A stretch of 49,769 bases of DNA, filler included, from Candidatus Lindowbacteria bacterium RIFCSPLOWO2_12_FULL_62_27 (GTDB lineage: Bacteria; Lindowbacteria; 2-12-FULL-62-27): assembly GCA_001784175.1 (NCBI GenBank). It is 3 parts of 3 records of this genome, joined end to end, with 100 filler letters (N's around TTAATTAATTAA, not from the genome) between each part and the next. Parts side by side here need not be neighbours in the genome. Positions count along the whole stretch, not along the records: positions 1 to 23,958 come from MFPR01000037.1; 2 more parts are not named here. One strand, 5' to 3'. The notes below the pieces were generated by a model, which worked only from the letters and a program-made list of their open reading frames with translations, did not search any database and was not told where the DNA came from. Positions 4,666 through 38,249 of this stretch are shown piece after piece. Position 1 is the stretch's first letter; each line of letters starts with the position of its first letter. The position numbers and the translations under genes were made by a program.

Positions 4666-5292
4666 ATGACCGAAACACTGAACAGCCTCATTGACCGCAT
4701 TCAGAAAGAAGGCGTCGAGAAAGCCGACGTGGCGTCGGCCGAAATCATCGCCAAGGCCAAAGACACCGCGGCGTTGATCGTGAAAGAGGCCGAATCCAAA
4801 GCGGCCGACATCCTCGAAAAAGCGAAAAAAGACACGGAGTCCCTCACGGCCCGCAGCAAAAAGACGCTCGAGCAGGCCGCGCGCGACATCGTGCTCACCG
4901 TGGGCCAGGGGGTGGAGAAAGTATTCCGGGACCTGGCCGACCAGGGCGCGGGCGAAGCGCTGTCGGGGGAGGTGCTGGAGCAGACGCTCGTCAAAATCTG
5001 CGACGCGTTCCTCGCCCGCGGCATGACCGACGGCCGGCTGGAGCTTCTGGTGAACCCGAGCGACGTCGATCGTGTCAACGCGTATTTCAAAACGAGGTTC
5101 CGAAAGGCCCTGGAGGCGGGGGTGCAGATCCGGCCGGACGGCGGCATTGTCGCCGGCTTCAAGGTGAAGCTGGCCGGCAAGTCGCTTTCGCTCGATTTCA
5201 CCAAGGAATCGATCGCCGAATCCGTCCTGCAACTGCTCCGGCCGCAGCTTGCCGAGATTGTCCGCGGGGGCTTGGCGGCCGGCCGCGGATGA
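4666..5292 (+). CDS. atpE: V/A-type ATPase subunit E
   Basis: MTETLNSLIDRIQKEGVEKA...helical stalk...GIVAGFKV...LDFT. It is the first gene of the V-ATPase cluster. The ORF track's start at 4282 is an over-extension. Confidence 0.88.
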   Translation: MTETLNSLIDRIQKEGVEKADVASAEIIAKAKDTAALIVKEAESKAADILEKAKKDTESLTARSKKTLEQAARDIVLTVGQGVEKVFRDLADQGAGEALSGEVLEQTLVKICDAFLARGMTDGRLELLVNPSDVDRVNAYFKTRFRKALEAGVQIRPDGGIVAGFKVKLAGKSLSLDFTKESIAESVLQLLRPQLAEIVRGGLAAGRG

Positions 5293-5816
5293 GCGCCAAG
5301 TATTTTTATCTGATGTCGAGCCTTCCGACCCTGTCTCTGGACACGCCGCCGCCGCTGACGACGGACCAGTTCCGCCTCCAGTGCAAGACCTGGCTCACAC
5401 CGCTGGAATGGGCGGCGGTGGAGGAAGTCCTGACCTTCAACGAGTCACGGTCGGCCAACCCTTTTCTACTGCGCTGGCGCGACCGCGAAATCCAGCTTCG
5501 GAACGCCATCGCCCGCCAGCGCGCGGCGCGCCTCGGCGTCGATCCCGAGCCGCATCTTCGCGAGCACGGCGCCTACGACGCGTCGACCGACAAGAGCATC
5601 ATCAACGCCTTCGCGCGCCCCACGCCGATCGAACGTGAGATGGAGCTGGACCGTCTGCGCTGGCGGATCGTGGACGAAACGGCGGGGTTCGATCCCTATC
5701 AACTATCCGGTCTGCTCGCCTACGCCTTGAAAATCCGCCTCTCCCGGCGCTGGGCAAAGATGGACGAAGGGCGCGGCCGGGCCGCGCTCGAAGAACTCAT
5801 ACAAAGGACGGCATGA
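5289..5816 (+). CDS. DUF2764-like V-ATPase-associated (C-subunit-like) protein
   Basis: Begins KYFYLMSSLPTL and contains ERE..LDRLRW and LAYALK. It sits between E and A, as in chlamydial/Bacteroidota/spirochaete-type operons, with an ATGA overlap. Confidence 0.78.
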   Translation: MSAKYFYLMSSLPTLSLDTPPPLTTDQFRLQCKTWLTPLEWAAVEEVLTFNESRSANPFLLRWRDREIQLRNAIARQRAARLGVDPEPHLREHGAYDASTDKSIINAFARPTPIEREMELDRLRWRIVDETAGFDPYQLSGLLAYALKIRLSRRWAKMDEGRGRAALEELIQRTA

Positions 5817-5820
5817 CCCC

Positions 5821-7548
5821 ATGAGCAACACAGGAACCATTGTCGGCGTGAACGGAAACATGATCACCGTGGAATTCGGCGGCGACGTTCAGCAGAACGA
5901 AGTCGGCTACGCGAAGACGGACAGTCTGGAACTCAAGGCCGAGATCATCCGCATCCGCGGGCGCCGCGCGGACATGCAGGTCTTCGAGGACACCACGGGC
6001 CTCACGGTGGGAAACCCCGTCGAATTCAGCGGGGAACTTCTGACGGTGGAACTCGGTCCCGGGCTCCTCACGCAAATTTTCGACGGCCTCCAGAACCCGC
6101 TGCCCCAGCTCGCCGAAAAATGCGGATTCTTCCTCCAGCGCGGCATGTACCTTCCGGCGCTCCCGCGCGCAAAATCCTGGGACTTCACGCCGGCCGCCAA
6201 ACCCGGCGACACCGTCACCGGCGGCGACACGCTGGGAACGGTGCCCGAGGGAATCTTTCAACATCACATCATGGTCCCGTTTTCGGTCCGGTCCGAGTGC
6301 CGGGTCGAGGAGGTCGCGCCCGCCGGGGCGTACAAGGTCGAGCAGGTCATCGCGCGCCTGAAGGACGACCGCGGTCAGGCCCTCGAAGTGACGCTCATGC
6401 AGCGCTGGCCGGTCAAGATCCCGATCAAGAATTACGTCGAACGCATCAAGCCCGTCGATCCGCTCGTGACGAAGATCCGGATCATCGACACGTTCTTTCC
6501 CGTCGCCCGCGGCGGCACCTTCTGCGTGCCGGGGCCGTTCGGCGCCGGCAAGACGGTGCTGCAGCAGATGACGAGCCGGCAGGCCGAGGTCGACGTCGTG
6601 ATCATCGCCGCCTGCGGAGAGCGCGCGGGGGAGGTGGTGGAGACGCTGCGCGAGTTTCCGGAGGTGATGGACCCGCGCACCGGCCGCAGTCTCATGGAAC
6701 GGACGATCATCATCTGCAACACAAGCTCGATGCCGGTGGCGGCGCGGGAGGCGTCCGTCTACACGGGCGTCACGCTGGCCGAGTACTACCGGCAGATGGG
6801 CCTGCACGCGCTCCTGTTGGCCGATTCGACGAGCCGCTGGGCGCAGGCGCTGCGGGAGATGTCGGGCCGGCTGGAGGAGATTCCGGGCGAGGAGGCGTTC
6901 CCGGCGTATCTCGAGTCGGTGATCGCCGCCTTCTACGAGCGCGCGGGTCTTGTGCGCTTGAAGGACGGCCGGACCGGATCGATCACCGTCGGCGGCACGG
7001 TCAGCCCCGCCGGCGGGAACTTCGAGGAGCCCGTCACGCAGGCGACCCTCAAGGTCGTCGGCGCCTTTCACGGCCTGTCCCGCGAGCGGTCCGACGCCCG
7101 CAAATTCCCCGCGATCCATCCGCTCGACAGTTGGACCAAATACACGAGCGTCGTGTCCGACAAAGATGTGGCGGCCGCCAAGCGCACCCTGCGCGCGGGC
7201 ACGCACGTCGAGCAGATGATGAAGGTCATCGGGGAGGAGGGCACGTCGATCGACGATTTTGTGACGTATCTCAAGGCCAAATATCTGGACGACGTGTATC
7301 TTCAGCAGGACGGCTTCGACGCCGTCGACGGCGCGACGCCGGCCGACCGGCAGAAATATGTGTTCGGGATCATCGTGCGGATCCTCGAAACGGCCCTGAA
7401 TTTCGCCGACAAGGACGCCGCCCGGAAATTTTTCAACCAGCTCACGCAGAAAACCAAGGACTGGAACCGCGCGGCGTCGGGAACGCCGGAGTTTCAGGAA
7501 ATCGAAAAGCAAATTCAGGCGGGACTTGCGGAGGTGACGCGCTCATGA
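5821..7548 (+). CDS. atpA: V/A-type ATP synthase subunit A
   Basis: Walker [10 protein letters not shown], plus [33 protein letters not shown] and [14 protein letters not shown]. Confidence 0.96.
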
Positions 7549-8849
7549 AGAAGGTCTATCATCGCATTGAGAAAATCGTCGGAAACGTCCTGACCATCCG
7601 GGCGTCCGACGTCACGTACCGGGAACTGGCTGAGGTCACGTCCCGGCGGGGCGTGTCGCTGGCGCAGGTGATCCGGCTCGACGGCGAGTTCGTGTCGCTG
7701 CAGGTGTTCTCGGGCAGCCGGGGCATCGAGACGGACGCGCAGGTGCGATTCTTGAGCCATCCGATGACGATCCCGTTTTCGGATTCGCTCCTCGGCCGGA
7801 TTTTCACCGGCGGCGGCCAGCCCCGCGACAAGGGTCCCGGCCTCTACGAAAACCCGATCCCGATCGGCGGCCCGTCGGTCAACCCCGCCAAGCGCATCAT
7901 CCCGCGGCGGATGATCCGCACGGGCATTCCGATGATCGACGTGTTCAACACGCTGGTCGAGTCGCAGAAACTCCCGATCTTCTCCGTGGCCGGCGAGCCT
8001 TACAATCCGCTCCTCGCGCGGATCGCGCTTCAGGCCGAGGTCGACGTCATCGTTCTGGGCGGGATCGGCCTCAAGTACGACGACTATCTGTTTTTCCGGG
8101 ATTTCCTGGACGAAAACGGGGCGCTGGGCCGGTCGGTCCTCTTTATCCACACCGCCTCCGACCCCATCGTCGAGTCGCTCCTGGTGCCCGACGTGAGCCT
8201 GGCGGTGGCGGAGCAGTTCGCGATCAAGGGCAAGCGCGTTCTGACGCTCCTGACCGACATGACAAACTTCGCGGACGCGATGAAGGAGATCGCCATCACG
8301 ATGGAACAGATTCCCTCCAACCGCGGATACCCCGGCGACCTCTACAGCCAGCTCGCGTCGCGGTACGAGAAGGCCGTCGACTTCGAGGGCGCCGGATCCA
8401 TCACCATCCTCGCCGTGACCACCATGCCCGGCGACGACGTCACGCACCCGGTGCCGGACAACACCGGATACATCACCGAGGGCCAGTTCTACCTGCGCAC
8501 CGGCCGCATCGAGCCGTTCGGGTCGCTGTCGCGTCTGAAGCAGCTCGTGAACGCCAAGACGCGCGAGGACCACCGCACCATCATGAACTCGATGATCCAG
8601 CTTTACGCCTCCTACCGCGAGACGCTGGAGAAACAGGCGATGGGATTCAGGATGAGCGTCTGGGACACGAAGCTTCTTAAATATGGAGGGCGGTTCGAGC
8701 GCGAGATGATGGACCTGACCGTCAACATCCAGCTCGAAGCGGCGCTGGATCTCGGCTGGAAGATTCTCGCGGACTGTTTCGATCCGGCCGAAACCGGCAT
8801 TCCGTCGAAACTGCTCAAGAAGTTCTGGCCCGAAAAGGCTGCCGTGTAA
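7545..8849 (+). CDS. atpB: V/A-type ATP synthase subunit B
   Basis: Starts [14 protein letters not shown] (ATGA overlap with A, GGAGG RBS). Contains [25 protein letters not shown] and [15 protein letters not shown]. Confidence 0.95.
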
Positions 8850-8853
8850 GCGC

Positions 8854-9459
8854 GTGGCGAAGGTCAAGTTCACCAAGAATGAGCTCAAGGCGCAGCGCGA
8901 CGCGTTCGCGCTCTACCGCCGGTTCCTCCCGACGCTCCAGCTCAAGAAGAAGCAGCTTTTGTCGGAGATGAAGCAGGTGGAGGCGAAGATCGATGAGAAG
9001 AAATCGGAGGAGCGGCGGGTCCGTGCGGAGATGGACGCGTGGGTGAAACTGTTTTCGGAACCCGTGCCGCCGGAACATTTTCCGAGAATCAAGGAAATCC
9101 GAAAAGGGGAATCGAACGTCGCCGGCGTCAACATCCCCGTCCTCAAGGAAGTCATTTTCAGCGTCGACCGCCGCGATCTCTTCGCGACGCCCGCGTGGAT
9201 TGACGACGCGGCCAAGGCCCTGGAGGCGCTGGCGCGCATGAGGATCGAGCAGGGCATCCTGGCGGAGCAGGCGCGGCTGATCTCGGAGGAGCTGACCGCG
9301 ACGACCCAGCGGGTGAACCTGTTCGAGAAGGTCAAAATCCCGGAGTGCCGCAAAAACATCCGGCTGATCCAGATTTTCCTGGGCGACCAGCAGACCGCGG
9401 GCGTCGCGCGCGCGAAAATCGCCAAGGGCCGTGTGGTCGAGGAGGTGGCCGTAGCGTGA
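8854..9459 (+). CDS. atpD: V/A-type ATP synthase subunit D
   Basis: TKNELK..., LPTLQLKK, NVAGVNIP and TTQRVNLFEKVKIP. Confidence 0.93.
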   Translation: MAKVKFTKNELKAQRDAFALYRRFLPTLQLKKKQLLSEMKQVEAKIDEKKSEERRVRAEMDAWVKLFSEPVPPEHFPRIKEIRKGESNVAGVNIPVLKEVIFSVDRRDLFATPAWIDDAAKALEALARMRIEQGILAEQARLISEELTATTQRVNLFEKVKIPECRKNIRLIQIFLGDQQTAGVARAKIAKGRVVEEVAVA

Positions 9460-11267
9460 TTGTGGGAATGAAAAAGGTTTCCGTCCTGTGCCTGGCCTCG
9501 GCCCGCGAGGGCTCGCTGGAGGCGATGCGGGAGATGGGCGTACTGCACGTCATCAGCGGCAAGGCGCCGGAAAGCGACGAACTGAAACGCGCCGAAGAGA
9601 ACCTGGGGAACGCCCAGCGCGTCCTCGAGGTTCTCGGGCGGCAGAAGCAGTCGAAGAAACAGATGATGGCCGCGTTCGCGAAGATCCTCCAGCCCGGCGT
9701 CGAGATGGTCTCGTCCGTCGATGACCTGCTCGAACGCGTGACGGGGCAGATCAACCGCAACCACGAGCTGGACGTGCGGATCGAGGCGCTGACGCACGAG
9801 ATCGGTCAGATCGAGCCGCTGGGCCGGTTCGATCCGGAGTCCGTCCGGCGCCTCGGGGAGCGCGGCGTCACGATCCAGCTCTACTACGCGGCCGCGAGCG
9901 AGCGCCTCACGGCGCCGGAAACGGCCGTCAAGATCGAGATTCAGAAAACCCGTCGCGGCGAATATTTCGCACTGGCCGCGTTCGGCCCCATCGCGTGGGA
10001 CAAGGCGCCCCTGCCGATGCCCAAACGGTCCATCGATGCGGCCGCGGCGGAGCTGTCCAAGTCCCTCGCCGAGCGCGAGGAGGGCGAGCGCCGGCTCCAG
10101 ATGCTGAGCGTGTATCACGACGTGGTCGTCCGCCACGTCCTGCGCCTCGAGGACAGCGTGCGCTTCATCGAGACGAAATCCGTCATGCCGGTCGCGGGGA
10201 AGGTATCGTATCTGCGGGGATTCTGCCCCGAGGACAGGGTGGAGGCGCTGCGGAAAGAGTCCGTGGCGCGCGGCTGGGGGCTTTTGGTGGAAGACCCGGC
10301 CGAGGGCGAGCCGGTGCCGACCCTCGTCCGAAATCCGAAATGGTGCCGGTCGATCAAGACGGCCTTTGACGTCCTCGGGCTCATGCCGGGCTACAAGGAG
10401 GTCGACATCAGCGCGGTCTTCCTTTTGTTCTTCAGCCTCTTCTTCGCCATGCTGGTTGGCGACGCCTGTTACGGCCTGATCTTCCTCGGGCTTACCCTGG
10501 CCGCCCGGCGCGCGTACGATGATGCGCCGGCTGCGCCGTTCACGCTGCTCAAAATCCTGAGCGTCTGCACGATTGTCTGGGGCGTCGCCACCGGCACCTA
10601 TTTCGGCATGAGCGACCCGCCGGCCTTTTTGCTCGCGTTCAAGATCGACTGGCTGGCGCAGGAGAGCAATCTGATGAATCTCTGTTTTCTCCTCGGCGCC
10701 GTCCAGCTCACCATCGCGCATGTGTGGAACATCACCCGGTACTGGTGGAGCCTCAAGGTCCTCGACGAGGCGGGCCGGATTTTGATCACGTGGACGATGT
10801 TTTTCGCCGCCCGCACGATGATCCTGGGCGCCGTGTTTCCGACCTGGATGTTCTATTTCTTCGGCGCGGGCGTTCTGGCGTTGATTCTGTTCATGACGCC
10901 CGTCAAACAACTCAAAACCGAGTGGTACAACCACGTGATGCTGCCGCTCAACATCATCAGCATGTTCGTCGACGTCGTGTCCTACGTGCGGCTCTTCGCC
11001 GTGGGCTTTGCGGGCTTCGCGATCGCGAACAATTTCAACGAAATGGCGCTCGGCGCCGGCGCGCCCGGCCCCCTGGCGGGTCTGGGGTCGGCGCTGATTT
11101 TGTTTTTGGGGCACTCTCTCAATATAGTTCTTTCGTGCATGGGCGTGCTGGTTCACGGAATCCGGCTGAACGCCCTCGAATTTTCCGGGCACCTCGGCAT
11201 GCAGTGGTCGGGATACGCCTACAATCCATTTGCTCGAATGGATTCACAACCTCGCAAAGGAGATTGA
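9456..11267 (+). CDS. atpI: V/A-type ATP synthase subunit I (a)
   Basis: GTG start MIVGMKKV overlaps the D stop. Contains VPTLVRNP, FFAMLVGDACYG, DVVSYVRLFAVG and HGIRLNALEFS, with a hydrophobic C-terminal half. Confidence 0.93.
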   Translation: MIVGMKKVSVLCLASAREGSLEAMREMGVLHVISGKAPESDELKRAEENLGNAQRVLEVLGRQKQSKKQMMAAFAKILQPGVEMVSSVDDLLERVTGQINRNHELDVRIEALTHEIGQIEPLGRFDPESVRRLGERGVTIQLYYAAASERLTAPETAVKIEIQKTRRGEYFALAAFGPIAWDKAPLPMPKRSIDAAAAELSKSLAEREEGERRLQMLSVYHDVVVRHVLRLEDSVRFIETKSVMPVAGKVSYLRGFCPEDRVEALRKESVARGWGLLVEDPAEGEPVPTLVRNPKWCRSIKTAFDVLGLMPGYKEVDISAVFLLFFSLFFAMLVGDACYGLIFLGLTLAARRAYDDAPAAPFTLLKILSVCTIVWGVATGTYFGMSDPPAFLLAFKIDWLAQESNLMNLCFLLGAVQLTIAHVWNITRYWWSLKVLDEAGRILITWTMFFAARTMILGAVFPTWMFYFFGAGVLALILFMTPVKQLKTEWYNHVMLPLNIISMFVDVVSYVRLFAVGFAGFAIANNFNEMALGAGAPGPLAGLGSALILFLGHSLNIVLSCMGVLVHGIRLNALEFSGHLGMQWSGYAYNPFARMDSQPRKGD

Positions 11268-11270
11268 TTC

Positions 11271-11723
11271 ATGGATGCCGCAACAATCGTATCGCTCGGC
11301 AAGTTCGGCGGCGCCGCCGCCCTGGGACTGGCCGCGGTCGGATCGTCGATGGGCTCGGGAATCGCGGGCATGGCGGCGGTCGGCGCGTGGAAGAAATGCT
11401 ACGCGCAAAACCGCCTCGCGCCCTTTCTGCTCGTCGCCTTCATCGGCGCTCCGCTGTCCCAGACGATTTACGGGATGATCACGATGAACAACATCGTCAA
11501 GGCCGCCGTGGCCGGCACAAGCTGGCCCGCGCTGATCGGCGCCGGATTTTTCGGAGGCCTCGGCATGGGTGCTTCGGCCTGGGGCCAGGGCATGGCGGGC
11601 GCCGCGGGCGCCGACGCGCTGGCCGAAACCGGCAAGGGCTTCGGCAACTACCTCATCGCGCTGGGCGTCATCGAGACCGTCGCCATCTTCGTGATGATTT
11701 TCATCGGCAAGGTGATCGCCTGA
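11271..11723 (+). CDS. atpK: V/A-type ATP synthase subunit K (c), four TM helices
   Basis: Gly-rich hydrophobic helices, PLSQTIYG, SAWGQG and the essential Glu in IETVAIF. AAGGAG RBS. Confidence 0.93.
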   Translation: MDAATIVSLGKFGGAAALGLAAVGSSMGSGIAGMAAVGAWKKCYAQNRLAPFLLVAFIGAPLSQTIYGMITMNNIVKAAVAGTSWPALIGAGFFGGLGMGASAWGQGMAGAAGADALAETGKGFGNYLIALGVIETVAIFVMIFIGKVIA

Positions 11724-11740
11724 CGACCACGCGCCCCGCG

Positions 11741-12484
11741 TTACAGTAGATTTCGAAGCTGGTCCGGGGCGTTGCCTTCCAGCATATAGAAGTGCTCGAT
11801 CGATTCCGTGTCCGGCTGGACCGTGCGGTTGAAGGCGAGGGTGCCGTAGACGAAGACGGGGGCGAGGCCCGCGCCGAGGTCCGACGCGAGCATTTTCTGC
11901 AGGTGCCGGACCAGTTCCGCCGTCTGGACTTCGAGGTTCTTCCTCGTGATCGCCATCATCGGGTCGGGGGACTTCAGGATTTCGGCCTGATGGGGTTTCA
12001 GCCTGAACTTGATCATGCCCAGAAAGTCCAGGTGCCGTTCGCCGTCCTGGGTCTGCGAAATGGAGAGTTCCTCGTCGGGCTTGGTTTGAAAATCCTCCAG
12101 CACATGCGCCAGCGCGCCGCAGGCCGAGCGCTTGCGGCCGTCGCGCCCGATGAGCGATCCGTAGGTCCGGCGGCCGGCCTCTTCCGATTCGCCGATGTGG
12201 ACATTGACCTCAAAGACGTTGCTGCGGTGCCCCCGGCTGATGGCGACACGGATTTGCTGATAGAAAATCTGGCTTCCGATCACCCGCGTCGTAAAAATGC
12301 CGCCGTACCCTCCGAAGACGCCCGTTCGCACGGCATCGGCCGAGCCGGTGACTTCGTCGCTGCACCCGAACAGCGCGAGGTACGGCGTCGTTTCGGGATG
12401 AAGTGCGTGAATCGCGTCGCGCACATTCCGGAACAGATAATCCGCGTCGTATTCGGCTCCTTTCCGAACGGGGGTGCTGCGCAT
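11741..12484 (-). CDS. Hypothetical protein resembling LCIB/theta-class carbonic anhydrase
   Basis: The C-S-D-E, V-H-I-G and R..R.SACGAL motifs parallel the LCIB pattern CRDE...PHI...R....ACGAL (Cys/His/Cys zinc ligands). Recognised by eye only. Confidence 0.55.
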   Translation of the reverse strand: MRSTPVRKGAEYDADYLFRNVRDAIHALHPETTPYLALFGCSDEVTGSADAVRTGVFGGYGGIFTTRVIGSQIFYQQIRVAISRGHRSNVFEVNVHIGESEEAGRRTYGSLIGRDGRKRSACGALAHVLEDFQTKPDEELSISQTQDGERHLDFLGMIKFRLKPHQAEILKSPDPMMAITRKNLEVQTAELVRHLQKMLASDLGAGLAPVFVYGTLAFNRTVQPDTESIEHFYMLEGNAPDQLRNLL

Positions 12485-12520
12485 GTCTGTCCAATCCTAC
12501 CTGCGCGCCTTCAAAATGCA

Positions 12521-12540
12521 AATACAGCAATTGCTGTATT
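12521..12540. promoter_or_regulatory. Perfect 20-bp palindrome, putative transcription-factor operator in a divergent promoter region
   Basis: AATACAGCAA|TTGCTGTATT is its own reverse complement. It is AT-rich and abuts a candidate minus-strand promoter TTGCAT(12521-12516)-16 bp-TAGGAT(12499-12494). Confidence 0.6.
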
Positions 12541-12632
12541 GCTTTTCCCCGCGCATTCATATTACATGCTCCCTATTGGAACCCCCTGACATCCGAAGAT
12601 GGAGGGCATTCTGTAAAGATGAGGTGATTGGC

Positions 12633-12884
12633 ATGAAATGTTGGATGGGACTGATTGGCGTTGGTTCATGGATTCTGTTCTCAAGCTGCGGAGGGAAACC
12701 GGCCGAGTCCCCGCAAGCTCAGCCTGCCGGAGAGGAGAGTCACGGGACGCACACCGAGGCCCAACCCGCAGCCGCCTCCGCCACGCATGCGTGCCCCATG
12801 CACCCGGAGGAAACATCGGACAAACCCGCCAAGTGCGCGAAATGCGGGATGGACATGGTCCCGAAGGACGGCGCCGCGCAGTGA
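12633..12884 (+). CDS. Small lipoprotein with heavy-metal-binding domain
   Basis: GAGGTG RBS, signal peptide with lipobox FSS-C, and C-terminal CPMHPE..SDKPAKCAKCGMDMVP motif. Confidence 0.8.
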   Translation: MKCWMGLIGVGSWILFSSCGGKPAESPQAQPAGEESHGTHTEAQPAAASATHACPMHPEETSDKPAKCAKCGMDMVPKDGAAQ

Positions 12885-12951
12885 TCGTTTGAGACTCCCA
12901 ATTACTGCGCGGCGTCCCGAGGGTCGCCCCGCATCACAGGAGGTATATCAA

Positions 12952-13551
12952 ATGAAGCGCGCTACATTCTTGTTGGTTGGGCTCGCCGCCCTCTTCATGG
13001 TCACCGGCGGCTGGGCCTCGGAATATGAGATTGACGCGTCCCACAGCGCGGTGATGTTCAAGGTCAAGCACCTCGGTATCAGCACGGTGACGGGGCGGTT
13101 TGAGAAATTTTCCGGGTCGTTCGACTTCGATACCGCGGACATCCCGGCCTCGAAGGCCTCGGCGGTCATCGAGGTCGCCGGCATCAACACCGGCGTCGAG
13201 AAGCGCGACGAGCATCTGCGTTCGGCGGATTTCTTCCACGCCGATTCGTACCCGCAGATGGCGTTCGTCAGCAAGGAGGTCACGCGGGCCGAGGGCGAGG
13301 GGTTCCAGATCGCGGGCGATCTGACGCTCCATGGCGTCACGCGGCCGGTCACGCTCGACGTTGAAATCGGCGGCATGGTCACGGACATGTCGGGCAAAGA
13401 CCGCGCGGCCTTCACGGCCACCACGAGCATCCATCGGAAAGACTTCGGGTTGACCTGGAGCAAGATGCTCGAGACCGGCGGGCTGGTCGTGGGGGAGACC
13501 GTCCGGATCATCCTTGAGATCGAGGGCATCCGGAAGAAGGAAACGAAGTAG
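12952..13551 (+). CDS. YceI-family polyisoprenoid-binding secreted protein
   Basis: AGGAGG RBS, signal peptide, YEIDASHSAVMFKVKHLG, RDEHLRSADFF, GDLTLHGVTRPV and RKDFG. Confidence 0.92.
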   Translation: MKRATFLLVGLAALFMVTGGWASEYEIDASHSAVMFKVKHLGISTVTGRFEKFSGSFDFDTADIPASKASAVIEVAGINTGVEKRDEHLRSADFFHADSYPQMAFVSKEVTRAEGEGFQIAGDLTLHGVTRPVTLDVEIGGMVTDMSGKDRAAFTATTSIHRKDFGLTWSKMLETGGLVVGETVRIILEIEGIRKKETK

Positions 13552-13566
13552 CGCCCGATCGCGGAC

Positions 13567-15786
13567 ATGGCCGTTTCGCCTGAAGGCGCCTGGCGGCCCT
13601 TTCCGGAGCTGGACGGCCGCATTCTCTTTGACGAGCCGACGGGCCGGATCCGCTTTTCGCGCAAAGCCCCGCTGGTGTCGCTGTCCGCGACCGTCGTGGC
13701 CGTCCGGCACGGCGAAACCGCCTGGAACGCCGTCGAGAATTCGTGGCAGGGGAGCGTCAACGCAAGAAAGAACCAGTTGACCGACCACGGGATCGAGCAG
13801 GCGGAGCGCGCCGCGCGGCAACTGTTCCGGCAGATCAAGGCGGACGTGCGGTCGAAGAAGGAGATCCGGCGCCGGTTTGACGAACTCGTGATCTTCACGA
13901 GCGAGCTCAACCGCGCCCGCGACACGGCAAGAATTTTCGTCCGGTACGCCGCCGCGGAGCTCAGAAAATCGGGTATTCCGTTTCGTCCCCGCATCCGGGT
14001 CGACGGCCGGCTGAACGAAATCTCGTTCGGATTCTGGGACAACAAGACCCTCGATGAGATCGAGCGGGAAAGCCCCGAAGAGGGGGAGCGGGCCCGGTCC
14101 TACATGCGCCTGAACGCGCTGGCGCGGTCCGGCAAGGGCCGGCGACGCGGGGAGCGGTTCATCGACGTGGTGGGCCGCGGCCTTGATTTTCTGAAGTCGC
14201 TTCAGGCGCCGGCCTACGAAGAGAAGCTCATCCTGATTTTCAGTTCGGCCGTCCTGATCAACGCCCTGCGCGTGAGTTTCGGCGACCGGTCATTGGAAAA
14301 CCGCGACGGCGTGATCGACTGGCGGTCCTACTCGCCGCCCCACGGCCGGCAGTCGCTGCTCACCGAAGGCCGCGGCGGTTCGTGGTTCGGCGATCTCGAC
14401 AGCGCCGTCGACCGGCTCTACAACGAAATGGACCTGACGCTCCGTGAGGACGTCATGTCGAGATTTCTGGACGAGTTCGTGCGCCAGATGAAGGACGGCC
14501 CGGCCGGCAGCGCAGCGTCTTTGGCCATGGAAAAGGGTTTTTTCTCGCGGCCGGTGTCGCTGTCGCCCGGCCATTTCATGGGCGTCGACCTTGGCGGGAC
14601 CTACCTGCGGATATTGCTGGCGGAAGTGACGCCGGACCGGCGGATCGACGAGGCGTCGATGGTCTCCGAGGAATTTGTCATTCCGGACCGCTACAAAACG
14701 GGCGACCGGTACAGGCCCGCCAAGGGTGAGGACCTGTTCCGGTTCATCGCCGGCCTCATCGAACAGATTCTGACTGCGTCGCCCGACCGCGACATCGGCT
14801 GGAAAGCGGGTCTGACGGTGGCGTTTCCGATGCGGCTGACCGGCGCCTCCAGCGGCGCGTTCACGGAGGACATCGGTTGGATCAAGGGCTGGAGCATTCC
14901 GGACCTGATCGGCCGGGACCCGGCGCGGATGCTGCAGGAGGCGCTGGCGGACCGCAAGCTCACGCGTCCGGAAATCCGGGCGCTGGCGGACGACACGGTG
15001 GGGACGCTCTTGGCGGGGGAAGTTTTGGACGGGTCAACGTTTGGCGCGTGCGTCATCGGCACGGGCATGGACGTGGCGGTCTGGGAGGGCGACACGGTCC
15101 TGGACGTGGGCGCGGGGAGGTTCGATTTGGCGTCGTGCGCGGACATGATCACGAGTTTCGACCGGATCGTCGACCGCGCCTCGGGCCGGCCGGGCGCGCG
15201 GCGGCTGGAGAAGATGGTATCGGCCAAATACATGCCGGAACTGATGCGGGCCATCCTCGGCGAATTCATCCACCACGAGTTTCTCTTCGACGGTTTCCGG
15301 TCCTCCGTCCTCGAACGGCCGTACCACGAGCTGGACAATCCGCAGGCCTTCCGCGCCCAGGACCTGTCCACGATGGTGCTCGACGACGAACGGCATGAAA
15401 TCGTCCGGAACGTTCTCGAACGCGTGGGGGTTCGGGAAAGCACCCTGGATGAAAGGATCGTCACGCGCCGGATCGCGCAGATGATCCTGACGCGGTCGGC
15501 TCAACTGTCGGCCCTGGCGATGGCCGCGACCCTCCGGCACGCCAACGGCGCTCCTGACCGGGTCAGCGCCTCCGGCGCCCCAAGTGCCGGCGTCTCCGAC
15601 GCCGGCCGGGACTACACATTCACGCTGGACGGCAACGTGGCCGGCCGCGCCGCCGGATACCAGCAGATCCTGCGGGACACGCTGGAGCTCGCCCTGGGCG
15701 CGCCTCTGGCGGCCCGCGTGCGCCTGCGCTACCGGAAATTCGCAAGCGCCATCGGCGGCTGCATCATGGCATCAAGCGTCGGGTGA
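13567..15786 (+). CDS. Histidine phosphatase (PGM-like) / hexokinase fusion protein
   Basis: N-terminal VRHGETAWN, SELNRARDTA, LNEISFGFWD and GERF motifs. C-terminal hexokinase motifs GVDLGGTYLR, GLTVAFP, WIKGW, DDTVGTLL, IGTG, LEKMVS, TRSAQL and DG. Confidence 0.78.
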   Translation: MAVSPEGAWRPFPELDGRILFDEPTGRIRFSRKAPLVSLSATVVAVRHGETAWNAVENSWQGSVNARKNQLTDHGIEQAERAARQLFRQIKADVRSKKEIRRRFDELVIFTSELNRARDTARIFVRYAAAELRKSGIPFRPRIRVDGRLNEISFGFWDNKTLDEIERESPEEGERARSYMRLNALARSGKGRRRGERFIDVVGRGLDFLKSLQAPAYEEKLILIFSSAVLINALRVSFGDRSLENRDGVIDWRSYSPPHGRQSLLTEGRGGSWFGDLDSAVDRLYNEMDLTLREDVMSRFLDEFVRQMKDGPAGSAASLAMEKGFFSRPVSLSPGHFMGVDLGGTYLRILLAEVTPDRRIDEASMVSEEFVIPDRYKTGDRYRPAKGEDLFRFIAGLIEQILTASPDRDIGWKAGLTVAFPMRLTGASSGAFTEDIGWIKGWSIPDLIGRDPARMLQEALADRKLTRPEIRALADDTVGTLLAGEVLDGSTFGACVIGTGMDVAVWEGDTVLDVGAGRFDLASCADMITSFDRIVDRASGRPGARRLEKMVSAKYMPELMRAILGEFIHHEFLFDGFRSSVLERPYHELDNPQAFRAQDLSTMVLDDERHEIVRNVLERVGVRESTLDERIVTRRIAQMILTRSAQLSALAMAATLRHANGAPDRVSASGAPSAGVSDAGRDYTFTLDGNVAGRAAGYQQILRDTLELALGAPLAARVRLRYRKFASAIGGCIMASSVG

Positions 15787-15835
15787 TGTTTCCCAAATGT
15801 GACACGGCCCCGCCCGGCAGGGTAACAAAAAATGT

Positions 15836-15942
15836 TTTATCCACGAAGCTGACACGAAGCTGACACGAAGGAAATCATAGCGAACAGGCTACAAGAATTT
15901 ATTTTAATCTTCGTGTCCCTTCGTGTCAGCTTCGTGGATAAA
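15836..15942. repeat. Long inverted repeat built of CACGAAG sub-repeats (REP/MITE-like; possible bidirectional terminator)
   Basis: The left arm TTTATCCACGAAGCTGACACGAAGCTGACACGAAG pairs with the right arm CTTCGTGTCCCTTCGTGTCAGCTTCGTGGATAAA (24 bp perfect), around an AT-rich loop. It lies between convergent genes. Confidence 0.8.
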
Positions 15943-23958: not shown

Positions 23959-24058
23959 NNNNNNNNNNNNNNNNNNNNNNNNNNNNNNNNNNNNNNNNNN
24001 NNTTAATTAATTAANNNNNNNNNNNNNNNNNNNNNNNNNNNNNNNNNNNNNNNNNNNN
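23959..24058. other. Artificial contig spacer (N run, TTAATTAATTAA, N run)
   Basis: 100-nt linker carrying a stop-codon cassette, identical in design to the one at 38150-38249. Confidence 0.97.
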
Positions 24059-27000
24059 GAGACGTATGTGCTTTTGTCGAAATACGTCACCCTCACCGAC
24101 TCGGAGTGGCGCCGCGCGGTGATCCCGCTCAAAGACGTGAGCATCGACACCAAGGCGATGGAGAACTGGTCGCTGCAGTTCCGGAGCGACAACGGCTATC
24201 GTGTACCGGGCAAGGGCGGGAACATTTACATTGACGACATCATGTTCAAGGCCGGCGCGCCTCAGACCCACACGAATTTCGACGTGATCTCGCCGGACAC
24301 CATCACGATCGGCGAAACGTTTTCCGCCACGTTCAAGGCGACGCACCAGGACCGCGGAGTGCTGTCGACGTCGACGTACTCCGGCACCGGCGTGATCAGC
24401 CTGACCGGCATCGGCATCGACACGTATTTGCCCAAGTCGCTTGCGGCGTTCGCGAACGGCCAGCGCAGCGACTCGATGATCGTTTTCACCGACACGCCCG
24501 GGTACATCACGATCAAGCTCACGCATCCGACCGACTCGCTGATTTACGGCCACAAGGTTGTGCGGGCGATCAGCGGGAAGATCCGGCTGGAGGTTCTGAC
24601 GGACCCGGTGTATTCCGGACGGCCGATCAATCTTCGCGCGACGGCGCTCGATTACAAGGGCGACACGCTGGCGTCGTTCAAGCAGTCCGCCGGGTTGGGC
24701 GTTTCGGGCGGCGTGGTCACGCCGGGGGGCACGTCGGCATTCGATACGGGCGTGTGGACCGGCGCTGCGACGGTGCATGCCGGGGGCACGGTGACGATCC
24801 GTGTGGAGAAGGACGGCTCGCAGGGCACGGCCGTGATATTTGTGCGCGCCCCGATTCAGATCGAAGAAGGCGCGGACGGCGGCAGTCCCAATTTGCTCGG
24901 CGGATGGACCTTCACGTGGCCCGACCCGAATTTCTCGATGACCTACTCGCAGACCCGGTCGTTCAACGACAGTTACGCTCTTCGATATTCCTACAACGTG
25001 CAGAGCGCGGGCTCGGGCGGCGGTTTCGGCCAGAGCCTGCAGAGCATCGACATCCGGACGGCCTCGACGCTGTCGTTCTGGATTCTCGGGGAGAACGGCC
25101 TGGGTCTGAGCGGAGATCTGCGCGTGGGGATCAAGGACTCGAACGGGATCGAAACACTGAAGGTCGTGACCGATTACGTTGTGCCTCGGCCGGACACATG
25201 GCGGCGGGCCATCATTCCGCTTACGGCGTTCACGGGCGTGGACACGTCGAGGATGGACAACTGGAATTTTCAGGTCGCGCCGACCGTCGGGCCGGCGCTT
25301 GTGACGGGGTACATCGATGACATTCGGTTCGACACGCACGTGCCGGATACGTATGTGACGTTTGAGGTGGAGGCGCCGGCGACGGTCGTGACCGGGGAGA
25401 CATTCATTTTGAAAGTGTGGGCGGTGCATCGAGACAGCGGCGTTTATTATCCGGCGAACGAGACCGTCGCGTTTTCGGTATCGAGCGGGAGCATCCTGCC
25501 GTCGTCTCAGGCGCTGAAAGCCGGCGTCATCCGGGACTCGTTCAGTGTAAGCACGCCGGGCCAGATCGTGATCACCGCGACAGCGAACGGCCGGAGCGGC
25601 ACGGCGACCGTGACGGTGTTGCCGGCGGGCAACGTGATCGTGGATGACTTTGAGGACGGGGATGCGGCGTACAACAATCTGGGCAAGACGACCGCGACGT
25701 GGAGCGTGCCGACGCGGGCGACGACCATCGATTCGCCCACGCGGGGCGGGATATCCGCCAAGTTCAGCTTCACGGCGACGAACACCCAGAACGGCGGGTG
25801 GGAGGAGCAGGTGGCGGCGAGTCCGGGCATGAACATTTCGTCCTTGAATTCCCTCGCATTCTGGGCGCGCGCCGCGACGGCGACCCCTGAAAATTATTCA
25901 AAGATCGTCTACACGAGCGTTCGTGACACCGCGAACGTCGAGGCGCCGAACCTGCCGCTGGACAGCTTCGTGCTCCTGAAGACCGGAGAATGGCGTCGCG
26001 TGATCATCCCGCTCGGGAACTTCACGGCGGACACGCGGCACATCAAGGACATGAACATCCTGCGGATCGACAACCAGACCGGCGCCACCGTCACCGGATC
26101 GGTTTACGCGGACGACATCCATTTCACGTCAGACACGGGCGACGGCCTGAACGATTTCGAGGTCATCGCGCCGGCGACAGCGATGCTGGGCGAGACGTTC
26201 GCGATCAAGATCTACGCGCGGCACAAGGAGAAGGGGATTCTTTCCACGTACAAGGACACCGTGACGTTCGATTCGCCCGCGGGCGTGCGGCCGGTTGCAT
26301 CGGACTCGTTCGCCGGCGGGATCGTGCGGCAGCTCATCAGCCTGTCCGAAACAGGCATCCTGCAGCTTGTCGTGAAGTCCGGCGGGCGGTCCGGGACCGC
26401 GACGATCCGTGTCTATGACACGGCGACGGGACTGGCGATCCACACGATGGACACGGGCGGAAATCCCACGACGACGAATGATCTCGGGCAGGGGACGCTG
26501 ACGTGGCTGGGCGGCGCCGCGGCGCCTGCCTACGACCGGTTCGACACGGTGACGCCGGGCCGCGCGAGCGCGACGGCCGCGAAATTCACGTTCGTCACGG
26601 ACGCGGACGGCACGGATGGCGGGTACGAGGAGCGGTTTGCGTCTCCGTTCGACGCGAGCACGTACAGGTATCTGACCTACTGGCTGAAGGCCGGCGACAC
26701 GGCGCAGCGGCTGAACGATCTCAAGACGTCGATCCGGGACGTCAACAACAATGAAGTGACTTTGAATCTCAAGGATTACGTGCGCGCGAGCGCGAAGGAA
26801 TGGCGGCGGGTTGTGGTGCCGTTCACGGATTTCGGCGCGGCGGTCGACACGAAGGCGCTGAAGGACATGAACTGGGTGAGGTTCAGCGTGAGCGCGTCGC
26901 CGTCGACGATGACGCAGATGTATCTGGACGATCTGGCGTTCGCGGGCTATCTGCCGAACGCGCTGTCAGGCTTTGAGATTTCGGCGCCGTCGAACGTGGT

Positions 27001-30000
27001 TCAGGGCGAGACGTTCGCGATCACGATCTACGCTTTCAACGAAGACAGCGGCATTTTGCGGTCGTTCACGTCGACCGCGAGCCTCTCCGGCTGTAGTCCG
27101 GCGATCACGGGCAGTTTCGAGACCGGTGTGCGGACGGAGTCGGTGTCGGTGAGCGGCACGGGAACGCTCACGATCACCGTGACGAGCGGCGGCAAAACGG
27201 GAAGTGTGCAGGTGCGCTCGATCGACACGGGCGCGCGTCTATTCGACGACTTCAACAACGGCGTGGACCCGAACGAATTCGGCGGCGGCAATTTCACCTG
27301 GGGGTCGTTCACCACCGCCTACCATGCAGACGTCACGTATGCCGGGTTATATTCGCAGAAGATGACCTATTCGACCGCCGCCGGCGGCGGATTTTTGATG
27401 TCTTTTGCCGCGGGCGACTCGAACGTGCGCCCGTACACGCATCTGTCCTTCTGGATGCGCGGCGACTTTGGCTACGAGACGGCCGCGAATCTCCGGATCG
27501 CGCTGAAGGACGCGACGGGCCTGGAGCTGTTCCAGTCGTATTCGAATTACATGGACGTCGACACGGCCGCGTGGCGTTTGGCGGTCGTGCCGTTGAATCA
27601 TTTTGCCGTGGACACGAGCCGGATGGACAACTTCAATATGCAGTTTGCCGGCACGCCGCTGAAATCGGGCGCCGGGTACATCGATGAGGTCTGGTTTCTG
27701 AAGAAGGACCCGGGGACGGACCACCTGGACGTGATCGCGGCGGACACCGTTTACGCGAGCGAGACGTTCACGCTGAAGGTGAAGGCGCACAACTACGGGC
27801 ACGGGATCGCGACGAGTTTCGCCGGGACGGCGTCGCTTGCGCTGAACACCGGCACGATCACGCCGGCGACGACGAACGCGCTCGGGACGGGTTCGGTCAC
27901 CGTCAGCGCGTACATCGCCGTGCCGGGAACGGCGACCATCACGGCGACGTCCGGGGCTTATTCCGGCACCCGGACGATTCAGGTGGTAGGCGGTCCGTTT
28001 GCGAAGTTTTCGTTGTGGACCGACACGACGTTCCGGACGGCGGGCACGCCGTTCGCGCTGACGATTACGGCGACGGACACGCACGGATTCCGCACGCGAT
28101 ACCTGTCGGATTCGGCGCGGTTGTCGACGACGTTTGGGACAGGCTCGATCCGGCCGGAGACCTCCGGGCTGTTCAACGGCGCTGAAACGGTGTCTGTCAC
28201 GGTGACGTGCACCGCATCCGGCAGTCTGAATCTGATCGCGACGGCGACGAACGGCGAGACGGGCGGTCTTCTGATCAGCTTCGCGCCCGATTCGACCGTG
28301 CTGACCCAGCCGGCGCTGACGACGACAGAAACGCAGCCCACGTTTGCGTGGTCGGCGGTGACGGGCGCTGACACCTATCATTTCCAGATCGACGACGACA
28401 CGACGTTCGCAACGCCGGTATACAGCGCCGACACGCTGACGGCGACGTCGTTCGCCTATCCCGCGGCGCTGGTGGCGAAGACCTACTACTGGCGGGTGCG
28501 CGCCGGCGAGCGGGATAACGGGCTGTGGAGCGGCTGGAGCGACACGCGGGCGCTGACGGTGGACACAGCGCCGCTGGTGAGTGTACTTTCGCCGGTGGAC
28601 ACGCACGAGACGAACGACACGACGCCGTCGTTTACGTGGAGCGGCAGGGCCGACACGTACGTTTTCCAGATTTCGCGGGTCGACACGTTTTCGCCGCTGA
28701 TCGACAGCAAGACCCAGAGCGGGACGAGCTACACGCCGTCGGGCAGCGTCTCGTATGCGGCCGACACCTATTTCTGGCGGATCGTGGCCGGCGACAGTTT
28801 GGGCAAGATCGACACAAGTCCCGCACGGTTTCTGATCGTGGACACTATCACGACGATCACGCTGACGGGGCCGGCCGACACGACGACCAGCGCCGATACG
28901 ACGCCGGCGTTTTCGTGGGCGGGCGACGGCGACACGTTTGTGTTTCAGATCGCGAAGGACACGGCATTCAGCAACGTCAGGGACACGAAAATAACAGCGG
29001 CGTTTTCGTACGCGCCGGACAGCGGCTATTCCGAGGACACGTATTTCTGGCGCGTTCTCGCGCTGGACATCGCCGGCAACGCGGACACCCCCGCGCACCG
29101 GATGGTTGTGATTGACACGCGCGCCACGGTTGCGCTGTCGACGCCGGGGGACTCGCACGAGACATCGGACACGACACCCGCGTTTACGTGGAGCGGCAGG
29201 GCGGACAGCTTTACATTCCAGGTTTCGCGCCTGACGACGTTCGACACGCTGATCGACAGCGCGACGCAGGCGGGGACAAGTTACACGCCGGCCGGAAGCG
29301 TCTGGTATGCGGCCGACACGTACTGGTGGCGCGTCGTCGCGAAAAACATTGCGGGGAATTTCGACACATCGTCGCGCTGGATGCTGGTGGTGGACACGAA
29401 GGTTGCGGTGACGTTGGCGTCGCCGGTGGACGGCGTTGTGAGCAACGACTCGACGCCTTCGTTTACGTGGACAAGCGACGGCGACACGTTTGTGTTTCAG
29501 ATCGCGCGGGACACGGCCTTTGGAAACGTGCGGGACACGAAGACGACGGCGGCGCTGTCCTATACGCCGGATACCGGATACGCCTATGACACCTACTTCT
29601 GGCGCGTCTTGGCGCTGGACATCGCGGGGAACGCGGAGACCGCCGCCTATCGGACGCTGGTGATCGATTCGCGCGTGTCGGTGACGCTGACGGGCCCGGG
29701 GGATTCGTATGAGACGAACGACACGACGCCGGCGTTCACGTGGGTCGGGACCGGCGACAGTTACACGTTTCAGATTTCCCGGAGCGAGACGTTCGCGACG
29801 ATCGCGGACAGCCAGATGGCGTCCGGGACCACGTACACGCCGTCGGGCGGCGTCTTCTACGCGGCAGACACATACTTTTGGCGGGTGATCGCGAAGAACA
29901 TCGCCGGCAACATGGACACAGCCGCGCGGCGGATGATCGTGGTGGACACGATCGTGAGTGTGACGCTGGAGAGTCCCGTGGATTCGGCCGTCGTGAGCGA

Positions 30001-38149: not shown

Positions 38150-38249
38150 NNNNNNNNNNNNNNNNNNNNNNNNNNNNNNNNNNNNNNNNNNNNTTAATTA
38201 ATTAANNNNNNNNNNNNNNNNNNNNNNNNNNNNNNNNNNNNNNNNNNNN
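38150..38249. other. Artificial contig spacer (N run, TTAATTAATTAA, N run)
   Basis: Same 100-nt linker design as 23959-24058. Confidence 0.97.

Follow-up and report, generated by a model that had tools for sequence, protein, structure and literature searches.

What does a protein do in which a histidine phosphatase and a hexokinase-family kinase share one chain, and in which each half lacks a feature that defines its own family? The question is raised by a gene at positions 13567..15786 (+ strand) of a 49,769-nucleotide stretch of DNA, called the window here, from the genome of Candidatus Lindowbacteria bacterium RIFCSPLOWO2_12_FULL_62_27 (GCA_001784175.1, here G000). Its product, P0001, belongs to the hexokinase and His_Phos_1 families by homology and fold and fails one defining catalytic or ligand feature in each. 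The answer that we prefer, and hold tentatively, is that P0001 may well use ATP to phosphorylate an acceptor other than glucose, and that this kinase is coupled to a histidine-phosphatase domain, either attenuated or serving only to sense a ligand, which would read the product or a related phospho-metabolite.

A phosphatase and a hexokinase-family kinase in one chain

The window is a composite of contig pieces (C37:1-23958, the end of C40, and C42:1-11520) with N spacers between them; the N runs at 23959-24058 and 38150-38249 are the joins, and the fusion gene and the neighbours discussed with it all lie in the first piece. The fusion gene has the following features, given with the evidence for each:

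13567..15786, + strand: whole open reading frame (ORF) of P0001, histidine-phosphatase/hexokinase-family fusion (ORF, translation, Pfam, orthologues of the same architecture)
13567..13695, + strand: N-terminal extension, residues 1-43, beta-strands ahead of the phosphatase core (alignments, AlphaFold2 (AF2) model)
13696..14301, + strand: His_Phos_1 (branch 1) domain, residues 44-245 (Pfam E 3.6e-21; AF2; structural matches)
13705..13713, + strand: RHG motif, R47-H48-G49, with the nucleophile His (invariant in all 49 aligned relatives)
14239..14250, + strand: FSSA, residues 225-228, for the usual x-S-H-G, with Ser227 at the second catalytic His (alignments)
14317..14430, + strand: residues 251-288, from the last phosphatase strand through a short linker into the first hexokinase helix (pairwise identity)
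14335..14352, + strand: PPHGRQ (H259), clade-specific, where the wider subfamily has L-P-N-a-x-P (alignments)
14431..15018, + strand: Hexokinase_1 domain, residues 289-484 (Pfam E 2.2e-30; model confidence, pLDDT, >90)
14587..14604, + strand: DLGGTY, phosphate-1 motif, D341 and T345 kept, Y346 for Asn (alignment)
14881..14886, + strand: I439-K440 (WTKGF changed to WIKGW), Thr replaced and Lys kept (alignment)
14989..14994, + strand: D475-D476 (NDT changed to DDT), glucose-ligand Asn replaced and catalytic base Asp kept (alignment)
15058..15072, + strand: GTGMD, phosphate-2 motif, T499 kept, D502 for the glucose-ligand Asn (alignment)
15091..15771, + strand: Hexokinase_2 domain, residues 509-735 (Pfam E 3e-31; Foldseek, target-normalised TM score 0.85-0.88)
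15109..15114, + strand: G515-A516, where the xNxEWG motif has E-W (alignment)
15208..15210, + strand: E548, equivalent to E294 of HK2, kept (alignment)
15558..15609, + strand: copy of a dispersed 52-base palindromic repeat, in a Hexokinase_2 loop (alignments, BLAST)

The original prediction, made from the sequence alone, described one 739-residue ORF with an RHG phosphatase motif near 13705 and a hexokinase domain from near 14400. The ORF listing of the window gives a single frame of that length with an ATG start, the RHG triplet stands at 13705-13713, and in Pfam all three domains score above their cut-offs: His_Phos_1 with 76.2 bits (cut-off 21.7), Hexokinase_1 and Hexokinase_2 (PF00349 and PF03727) with 106.4 and 109.1 bits (cut-offs 24.3 and 24). 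The hexokinase region is thus present as described, with its Pfam domain starting at nucleotide 14431. The motifs that had been quoted are all found, namely LTVAFP (416), WIKGW (438), DDT (475), GTGMD (498), LDVGAG (512) and FSSA (225).

Two orthologues from other assemblies, P0002 (730 residues) and P0003 (727 residues), share the three Pfam domains of P0001 and their order and are 70-72% and 62-64% identical to it, respectively. P0002 is encoded in a genome of a different genus in the same family as the source genome (G003), and is named by NCBI 'histidine phosphatase family protein [bacterium]' and nothing more; a further member of the fusion clade, P0264, belongs to the 90% cluster of P0002. 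The junction between the halves was also covered by Logan contigs of public runs that carry no flag as a possible source of the window DNA. Contigs of the runs X5 (14049-14953) and X6 (13732-14618) each span the whole inter-domain stretch (about nucleotides 14314-14433) with 0 differences, and in X7 the stretch is covered by two overlapping contigs; neither a stop nor a misassembly is found between the domains. The GC (guanine plus cytosine) content of the gene is that of its flanks. The fusion is a genuine single protein and not an assembly artefact. It is a cytoplasmic protein from a small uncultured groundwater lineage, and the runs that hold this DNA are labelled as groundwater and soil metagenomes, with no RNA data set listed among them.

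The fusion architecture is very rare and, as far as found, confined to a small clade. Among 5.8 billion clustered proteins, 64 match at E <= 0.001 and only P0002 and P0003 have all three domains. An exhaustive reading of 1.84 billion cluster representatives gives 1449 matches at E <= 0.001, and among the 150 of them that were listed P0003 alone matches at full length, P0066 being a 109-residue fragment with 98% identity. Both halves are matched in only three of the 214 collected proteins, which are the fusions themselves (0/211 others). The phylum is represented by four genomes in the collection; two have the fusion, and it was not found in the other two, which are 88% and 91% complete. Profile scans of genome and metagenome contigs, which used the alignment A1 and the patterns FGFWDNK and RHGET[AHN]WN, found no further fusion locus, in a set from which records of the source genome itself may be excluded. 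The best 80 of 443 confirmed relatives in genome contigs and the best 80 of 396 in metagenome contigs are generic histidine phosphatases, which match over residues 3-282 and nowhere else, with no more than 38% identity. When longer proteins were searched with residues 1-290, none of 2046 candidates matched, and the Atlas feature search gave no usable match for the whole protein, with residues 1-285 leading to generic His_Phos_1 clusters. The searched literature held no description of a fusion of hexokinase and histidine phosphatase (His_Phos_1), and nothing relevant was found on the substrate specificity of bacterial hexokinase/ASKHA enzymes. By the two protein-library searches and the searched literature, the architecture is rare and uncharacterised.

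Residues kept and replaced in the two halves

Sugar pocket of the kinase—The kinase part, which makes up the C-terminal two-thirds of the protein, is a hexokinase-family ASKHA kinase, and its fold is not in doubt. The best relatives of solved structure are human HK2 and HK1 (E 7.8e-57), the full-length AF2 model has pLDDT >90 over residues 290-739 with the exception of an inserted loop, and Foldseek gives target-normalised TM scores of 0.85-0.88 to glucokinase and hexokinase structures (E ~1e-26). Both Pfam domains, the fold, and the phosphate-1 and phosphate-2 motifs with the catalytic Asp and Lys place it in the hexokinase family. Its residues were mapped by pairwise alignment to zebrafish HK2 (P0012), in which the motif positions were located directly. 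Eight residues are kept: D341 (D84 in HK2), T345 (T88), K440 (K173), D476 (D209), T499 (T232), E548 (E294), K549 (K295), and S601 (S340). Eight are replaced: Y346 (N89), A419 (S155), I439 (T172), D475 (N208), D502 (N235), G515 (E260), A516 (W261), and A597 (T336). For these motifs we take the glucokinase number to be the HK2 number minus four.

The primary glucose contacts of human glucokinase are Asn204, Asn231, and Glu256, which Thr168 and Lys169 join in the closed form, while Thr228 and Ser411 contact the phosphates of ATP, as given in the glucokinase account cited here (PMC3531626). At the positions of Asn204, Asn231, Glu256, and Thr168, P0001 has D475, D502, G515, and I439, respectively. 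All three primary glucose ligands and Thr168 are replaced in the alignment, and the predicted catalytic base, the Lys, the Mg-binding Asp, and the phosphate-loop Thr remain.

How unusual these replacements are is seen in an alignment of the best hexokinase domain of each of 194 proteins, 191 of which are not fusions. The N208 column has Asn in 190/191 non-fusion rows and Asp in all three fusions; the N235 column has Asn in all 191 and again Asp in the three fusions; the E260 column has Glu in all 191, and Gly, Gly, and Ala in the fusions. The catalytic columns are shared: K173 is Lys in 191/191 rows and D209 is Asp in 189/191, with Lys and Asp in all three fusions. The other columns are less uniform among the non-fusion rows (T172 with Thr in 159/191, T232 with Thr in 186/191, and W261 with Trp in 143/191). 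A remodelled sugar pocket, as had been proposed, is supported at residues that are otherwise near-invariant.

In a FastTree tree built on the 194 hexokinase-domain rows, the fusion clade has a support of 1.0 and its sister group (0.97) is formed by four standalone environmental hexokinases, P0067, P0069, P0071, and P0074. In these four, Ser155 has already given way to Ala and Trp261 to Cys, and the T, N, N, E set is retained. Of the 190 internal branches, none is as long as the stem of the fusion clade (0.86, against 0.29 for the sister clade), so that the pocket change looks like one burst followed by constraint. The chemistry residues are kept, the binding residues are replaced, and the new state is conserved at 60-70% identity, a pattern to be expected from an acceptor change rather than from decay.

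The kinase domain is 36-38% identical to uncultured standalone proteins and 27-30% identical to vertebrate HK2, and in the tree it nests among hexokinases of environmental assemblies and not among eukaryotic ones. The description 'eukaryote-type hexokinase' holds as a family name and fails as a statement of origin. The fusion is the sole hexokinase-family gene of the source genome, which has a Glk-type glucokinase (PF02685, E 2.8e-101) and a ROK protein elsewhere; glucose phosphorylation is apparently covered by another gene.

Active site of the phosphatase—The N-terminal third of P0001 is a branch-1 histidine-phosphatase domain with its phosphate pocket and nucleophile kept. The AF2 model of the N-terminal 290 residues, which was built on an alignment of 49 sequences, has a pLDDT of 88.7 and a predicted TM score (pTM) of 0.87, and over residues ~39-270 it matches PspA, Rv2419c GpgP, PhoE/YhfR, dPGMs, and the FBPase-2 domain with VIA Z scores of 17.7-19.9. 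NCBIfam places this part generically only, since the scores of P0001 fall below the cut-off in 17/17 listed curated equivalog families (dPGM, CobC, PspA, GpmB, and others), the best being 49.2 bits against 326. R47, H48, G49, N54, R116, and E151 are invariant columns of the 49-sequence alignment, and the catalytic roles of R47, H48, N54, R116, and E151 are presumably those of branch-1 histidine phosphatases in general. The Pfam match, the fold, the RHG motif, both Arg, the Asn, and the acid Glu are all those of branch 1, and the second His is absent. His is at least 90% conserved in that column among the 49 sequences, where the fusion has Ser227-Ala228. It is present in 22/26 domain rows, the four without it being the three fusions, all with Ser, and P0138. 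Both alignments thus bear out the prediction, read from the string IFSSA, that the second catalytic His is missing.

The subfamily to which this domain belongs is marked by the N-terminal extension and by a C-terminal 'G.IDWR....PN' segment. The extension follows the pattern W.P..L.G.IL....TG.I.F; in the model of the N-terminal domain its strands at residues 9-11, 19-22, and 27-30 have pLDDT >90, and no structural match to this model extends ahead of residue 39. Subfamily members are found as standalone proteins of 255-307 residues and as modules of very long multi-enzyme proteins, together with a second His_Phos_1, Inositol_P, PHP, ARMT1-like, or TreT domains; the few named members are from Candidatus Omnitrophota. 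Four long environmental proteins, P0075, P0078, P0088, and P0101 (2071-2441 residues), have two tandem copies of the same phosphatase subfamily together with inositol-monophosphatase and PHP domains and can be labelled 'multi-phosphatase' giants.

Connector between the domains—Residues 251-288 are the most conserved stretch of the protein, with pairwise identities of 95/79/82% among the three fusions. The corresponding values are 60/61/44% for the N-terminal extension, 77/64/65% for the phosphatase core, 68/63/59% for Hexokinase_1, and 71/61/61% for Hexokinase_2, which suggests that both halves are under constraint. Residues from 281 onward align with the first helix of HK2, so the true linker has only ~15 residues (TEGRxGSWFGDLDS). 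From this we infer that the two domains would form one rigid unit and be functionally coupled, instead of being two loosely tethered enzymes.

What the fusion protein may do

Preferred reading and points against it—In the reading that we prefer, the kinase would still use ATP, and its acceptor would be other than glucose, mannose, or fructose: a modified sugar or a polyol, perhaps amino-substituted or bulkier. The phosphatase domain would bind the phosphorylated product or a related phospho-metabolite, either hydrolysing it slowly or only sensing it, and could tune the kinase through the short conserved connector of residues 251-288. The kinase would dominate in the protein as a whole, which would function in the manner of PFK-2/FBPase-2 or PPIP5K and is a member of neither family. 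That the two Asn to Asp changes point to an amino sugar is speculation from the geometry of glucose binding, as Asp can bind hydroxyls equally. The original prediction had proposed a non-glucose substrate or one domain repurposed for ligand binding, with PFK-2/FBPase-2 as an analogy. The rare architecture, the remodelled pocket, the missing second His, and the separate Glk fit this proposal; the analogy is one of function alone, as the two proteins have different kinase folds and domain orders.

Several observations weigh against the preferred reading. With its nucleophile His, two Arg, and Glu intact, the phosphatase could have full activity, and P0138, another domain of the subfamily, also lacks the second His. 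The nucleotide site has further changes (the Ser of DGS is N690, GSGxGAA is ASAIGGC, T336 is A597, and N89 is Y346), which could weaken ATP binding. An Asn to Asp change retains hydrogen-bonding capacity and is compatible with a neutral hexose. The connector is poorly modelled, with pLDDT <50 for residues 253-275 and a pTM of 0.69 in the full-length AF2 model. The gene neighbourhood is not conserved between G000 and G003, which share, loosely, a sugar-phosphate enzyme nearby.

Comparison with known proteins—Like PFK-2/FBPase-2, P0001 has in one chain a kinase that forms a sugar phosphate and a branch-1 histidine phosphatase, and the bisphosphatase domain (PDB 1fbt) matches the N-terminal model with a Z score of 17.7. 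Unlike PFK-2/FBPase-2, its kinase has the hexokinase/ASKHA fold, its phosphatase comes first, and its second catalytic His is missing; Pfam finds no 6PF2K domain in P0001 at E up to 1, which places it outside that family. Isoforms of PFK-2/FBPase-2 with weak or dead phosphatase halves exist. PPIP5K is a eukaryotic protein whose kinase is of the ATP-grasp type and whose phosphatase belongs to branch 2, and its substrates are inositol pyrophosphates. PPIP5K/Vip1 also combines a kinase and a histidine phosphatase in one protein, which together control 1,5-InsP8, the balance of the two activities setting the messenger level; its kinase is N-terminal and its phosphatase phytase-like, unlike the fusion, according to the account cited here (PMC11836120).

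The 100-kDa vertebrate HK1 and HK2 are similar in that another globular domain stands ahead of the catalytic hexokinase and is joined to it through the first hexokinase helix. Their N-half is a duplicated hexokinase, which is regulatory in HK1, whereas P0001 has a histidine phosphatase in that place and other residues at the glucose-ligand positions. Rv2419c GpgP, PspA, and PhoE are the best structural matches of the N-terminal domain (Z 19.1-19.9, root-mean-square deviation 2.8-3.0 over 186-192 residues), and PhoE/YhfR also matches in sequence (E 2.8e-08). These are standalone proteins of ~200 residues with both catalytic His, and they lack the 39-residue extension and a fused kinase.

The closest relatives of both fusion domains include modules of giant multi-enzyme proteins. 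The phosphatase modules of P0075, P0078, P0088, P0101, and P0110 are 31-39% identical to the fusion, and related hexokinase modules are found in P0077, P0092, P0118, and P0140. Long proteins with hexokinase modules also carry PfkB, HAD, GHMP, G6PD, PGI, ROK, FGGY, or aldolase II domains, and the giants that have names are labelled Candidatus Omnitrophota. A 2026 preprint describes multi-enzyme giants, one of which has 9 hexokinase copies (10.64898/2026.06.07.730766). Giants have thousands of residues and many modules in one frame; P0001 has only 739 residues and two modules and comes from another phylum, and the hexokinase modules of the giants keep the canonical pocket; only the modules are related.

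Kinase/histidine-phosphatase fusions are classic setters of the level of signalling metabolites (fructose-2,6-bisphosphate and InsP8), and here the phosphatase is paired with a different kinase fold. If active, P0001 would extend an enzyme family that is among the best studied by a new substrate specificity, and might make a new phospho-sugar; if inactive, it would be a clean bacterial example of a double pseudoenzyme sensor. It is also a small and tractable two-module relative of the enzyme blocks in the giants, which have so far defied study in culture.

Other explanations—A fully bifunctional switch, in which both domains are competent and make and destroy the same signal metabolite, with H259 taking the place of the His expected at residue 227, is possible but on the unlikely side. 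In its favour, the phosphatase has an invariant nucleophile His, pair of Arg, Asn, and acid Glu, and its core is as conserved as the kinase. H259 of PPHGRQ is a candidate replacement for the lost second His, to judge from the alignments: a new invariant H-G appears at residues 259-260 exactly in the clade that lacks the canonical H-G, where the wider subfamily has P-N, and the segment lies within the most conserved stretch of the protein. The model of the N-terminal domain has a strand at residues 262-264, just after H259, which from the fold topology we assume to be antiparallel beside the strand ending at residue 226. On the other side, the full-length model is of low confidence over residues 253-275, P0138 has no second His and has gained none at the 259 position, and no signalling partner or conserved regulon is visible in the neighbourhoods of G000 and G003.

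A pseudoenzyme sensor, in which neither domain turns over and a bound sugar or phospho-ligand acts through partners, is rather improbable. The loss of the three primary glucose ligands and of one phosphatase catalytic His, together with several altered positions of the nucleotide site, would suit such a protein, and precedents are known among plant hexokinase-like proteins and acid-phosphatase-like ligand binders: Arabidopsis HKL proteins without catalytic activity (as reported in PMC2755033) and flea acid-phosphatase-like proteins that lack catalytic residues and bind amines and leukotrienes (as reported in PMC10728186). However, the residues kept are precisely those of the chemistry (D341, T345, K440, D476, and T499 in the kinase, H48 and E151 in the phosphatase), Pfam finds no DNA-binding or signalling output domain in P0001, and the neighbourhoods of G000 and G003 have no conserved partner gene.

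A bolder version of the switch is distinctly improbable. In this version the acidic rebuilt pocket would make a novel phosphorylated (amino-)sugar or polyol, a phosphatase with its His migrated to H259 would destroy the product, and the rigid connector would couple both, making the protein a bacterial analogue of PFK-2/FBPase-2 derived from modules related to those of giant proteins.

An ordinary glucose hexokinase with an accessory phosphatase domain, one of many enzyme fusions in these lineages, is highly unlikely. Related environmental proteins do fuse hexokinase to the PfkB, HAD, GHMP, G6PD, PGI, ROK, FGGY, and aldolase II domains listed above, and sugar-phosphate enzymes are encoded nearby (phosphoketolase in G000, class-3 fructose-1,6-bisphosphatase in G003), but of the 191 other hexokinase domains, fused modules included, 190, 191, and 191 have the Asn, Asn, and Glu that are replaced here, and the source genome already has Glk. 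That two genes were joined by misassembly or frameshift, or that the gene is eukaryotic contamination, has a negligible probability: the window is a composite and the genome is metagenome-assembled in 44 contigs, but the whole gene is within a single contig piece, its junction is crossed without a difference by contigs from other runs, P0002 of G003 and P0003 share its architecture, its GC content matches the neighbouring regions, and the adjoining genes are bacterial.

A palindromic repeat in the gene and the neighbouring DNA

The copy of the 52-base palindromic repeat in the Hexokinase_2 loop adds 16 in-frame codons, RVSASGAPSAGVSDAG, which are absent from both orthologues. At the DNA level, the empty site of G003 reads ...GAC AGG GAC..., and G000 has 48 additional bases with CCGG on either side. 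The 52-base unit has at least 55 copies of at least 40 bases in G000 (69 BLAST hits), most of them with 96-100% identity. It is GC-rich and folds into two short hairpins; by reading, its forward strand has no stop, and its reverse strand has a single TGA, which closes just one of the frames there. The repeat has 1, 50, and 32 matches in the relatives G001, G002, and G003, respectively, some in tandem at a 48-base period, G002 having tandem arrays of that period. Between genera, its copies reach 100% identity, while the fusion orthologues of these genera have ~70%.

Eight further copies lie in coding-like frames, and 7/8 of these frames have Pfam matches. The repeat-derived peptide is RVSASGAPSAGVSDAGR in a CHASE-PAS histidine kinase and a radical SAM protein, and PAGVGDAGTWGAGGADP in a PD-(D/E)XK protein, a pullulanase-type C-terminal region, and a squalene/phytoene synthase; the repeat is also in frame in coding-like frames of an ABC ATPase and of SpoIID. 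As for a mobiliser, the genome has 8 Y1_Tnp (RAYT/IS200-type) matches, none of them within 5 kb of a listed repeat copy, so that no mobiliser was assigned. Rickettsia palindromic elements behave similarly, with in-frame insertions. The lineage tolerates a mobile palindromic element inside working enzyme genes.

One feature lies directly upstream of the fusion gene:

12952..13551, + strand: YceI-like gene, which ends 15 bases before the ATG of the fusion (Pfam YceI E 3.8e-51)

The YceI-like gene and the fusion are probably co-transcribed, to judge from this spacing. In G000 the fusion is convergent with a cation-efflux gene and a phosphoketolase gene, and a V-type ATPase operon lies upstream. 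In G003 a class-3 fructose-1,6-bisphosphatase and a deoxyhypusine-synthase homologue are encoded upstream; a CBS-pair protein follows 4 bases after the fusion, and then genes associated with clustered regularly interspaced short palindromic repeats (CRISPR). The neighbourhood was considered as a clue to a pathway and rejected, as synteny differs between the two genomes. Rfam at E up to 1 found no riboswitch around the fusion gene in G000 and G003; it gave three sub-threshold matches to microRNA precursors, all on an intergenic hairpin.

This hairpin, which is near-perfect and ~105 bases long, lies at window positions 15837-15941, where the fusion gene and the cation-efflux gene converge. The 212 bases that separate these genes fold at -73.9 kcal/mol (z -7.1), and the hairpin has about five diverged copies in the genome with 73-77% identity. 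It is either a terminator or a small miniature inverted-repeat transposable element.

Upstream of the YceI-like gene, a small ORF at window positions 12633-12884 (+) has a lipoprotein-like start, MKCWMGLIGVGSWILFSSCGG, and a Cys-rich CPMHPE...CAKCGM motif, which to us recalls heavy-metal-binding domains. An ORF at 11741-12484 (-) is weakly similar to LCIB/C-type beta-carbonic anhydrases (PF18599, 23.3 bits, cut-off 25) and comes directly after the V-type ATPase operon (window 5289-11723). A 4709-residue open frame at 24068-38197 (+) is in a region of strong positive GC and AT skew; it lies on the end of another contig, is maybe cut at both ends, and is no neighbour of the fusion gene. Downstream of the orthologue in G003, the region L009 (G003:C51, positions 9534-15895) encodes a 1009-residue RRXRR/HNH protein, a TIR-domain protein (CAP12/Pycsar-type), Cas1, and Cas4, and may be a compact CRISPR or defence island.

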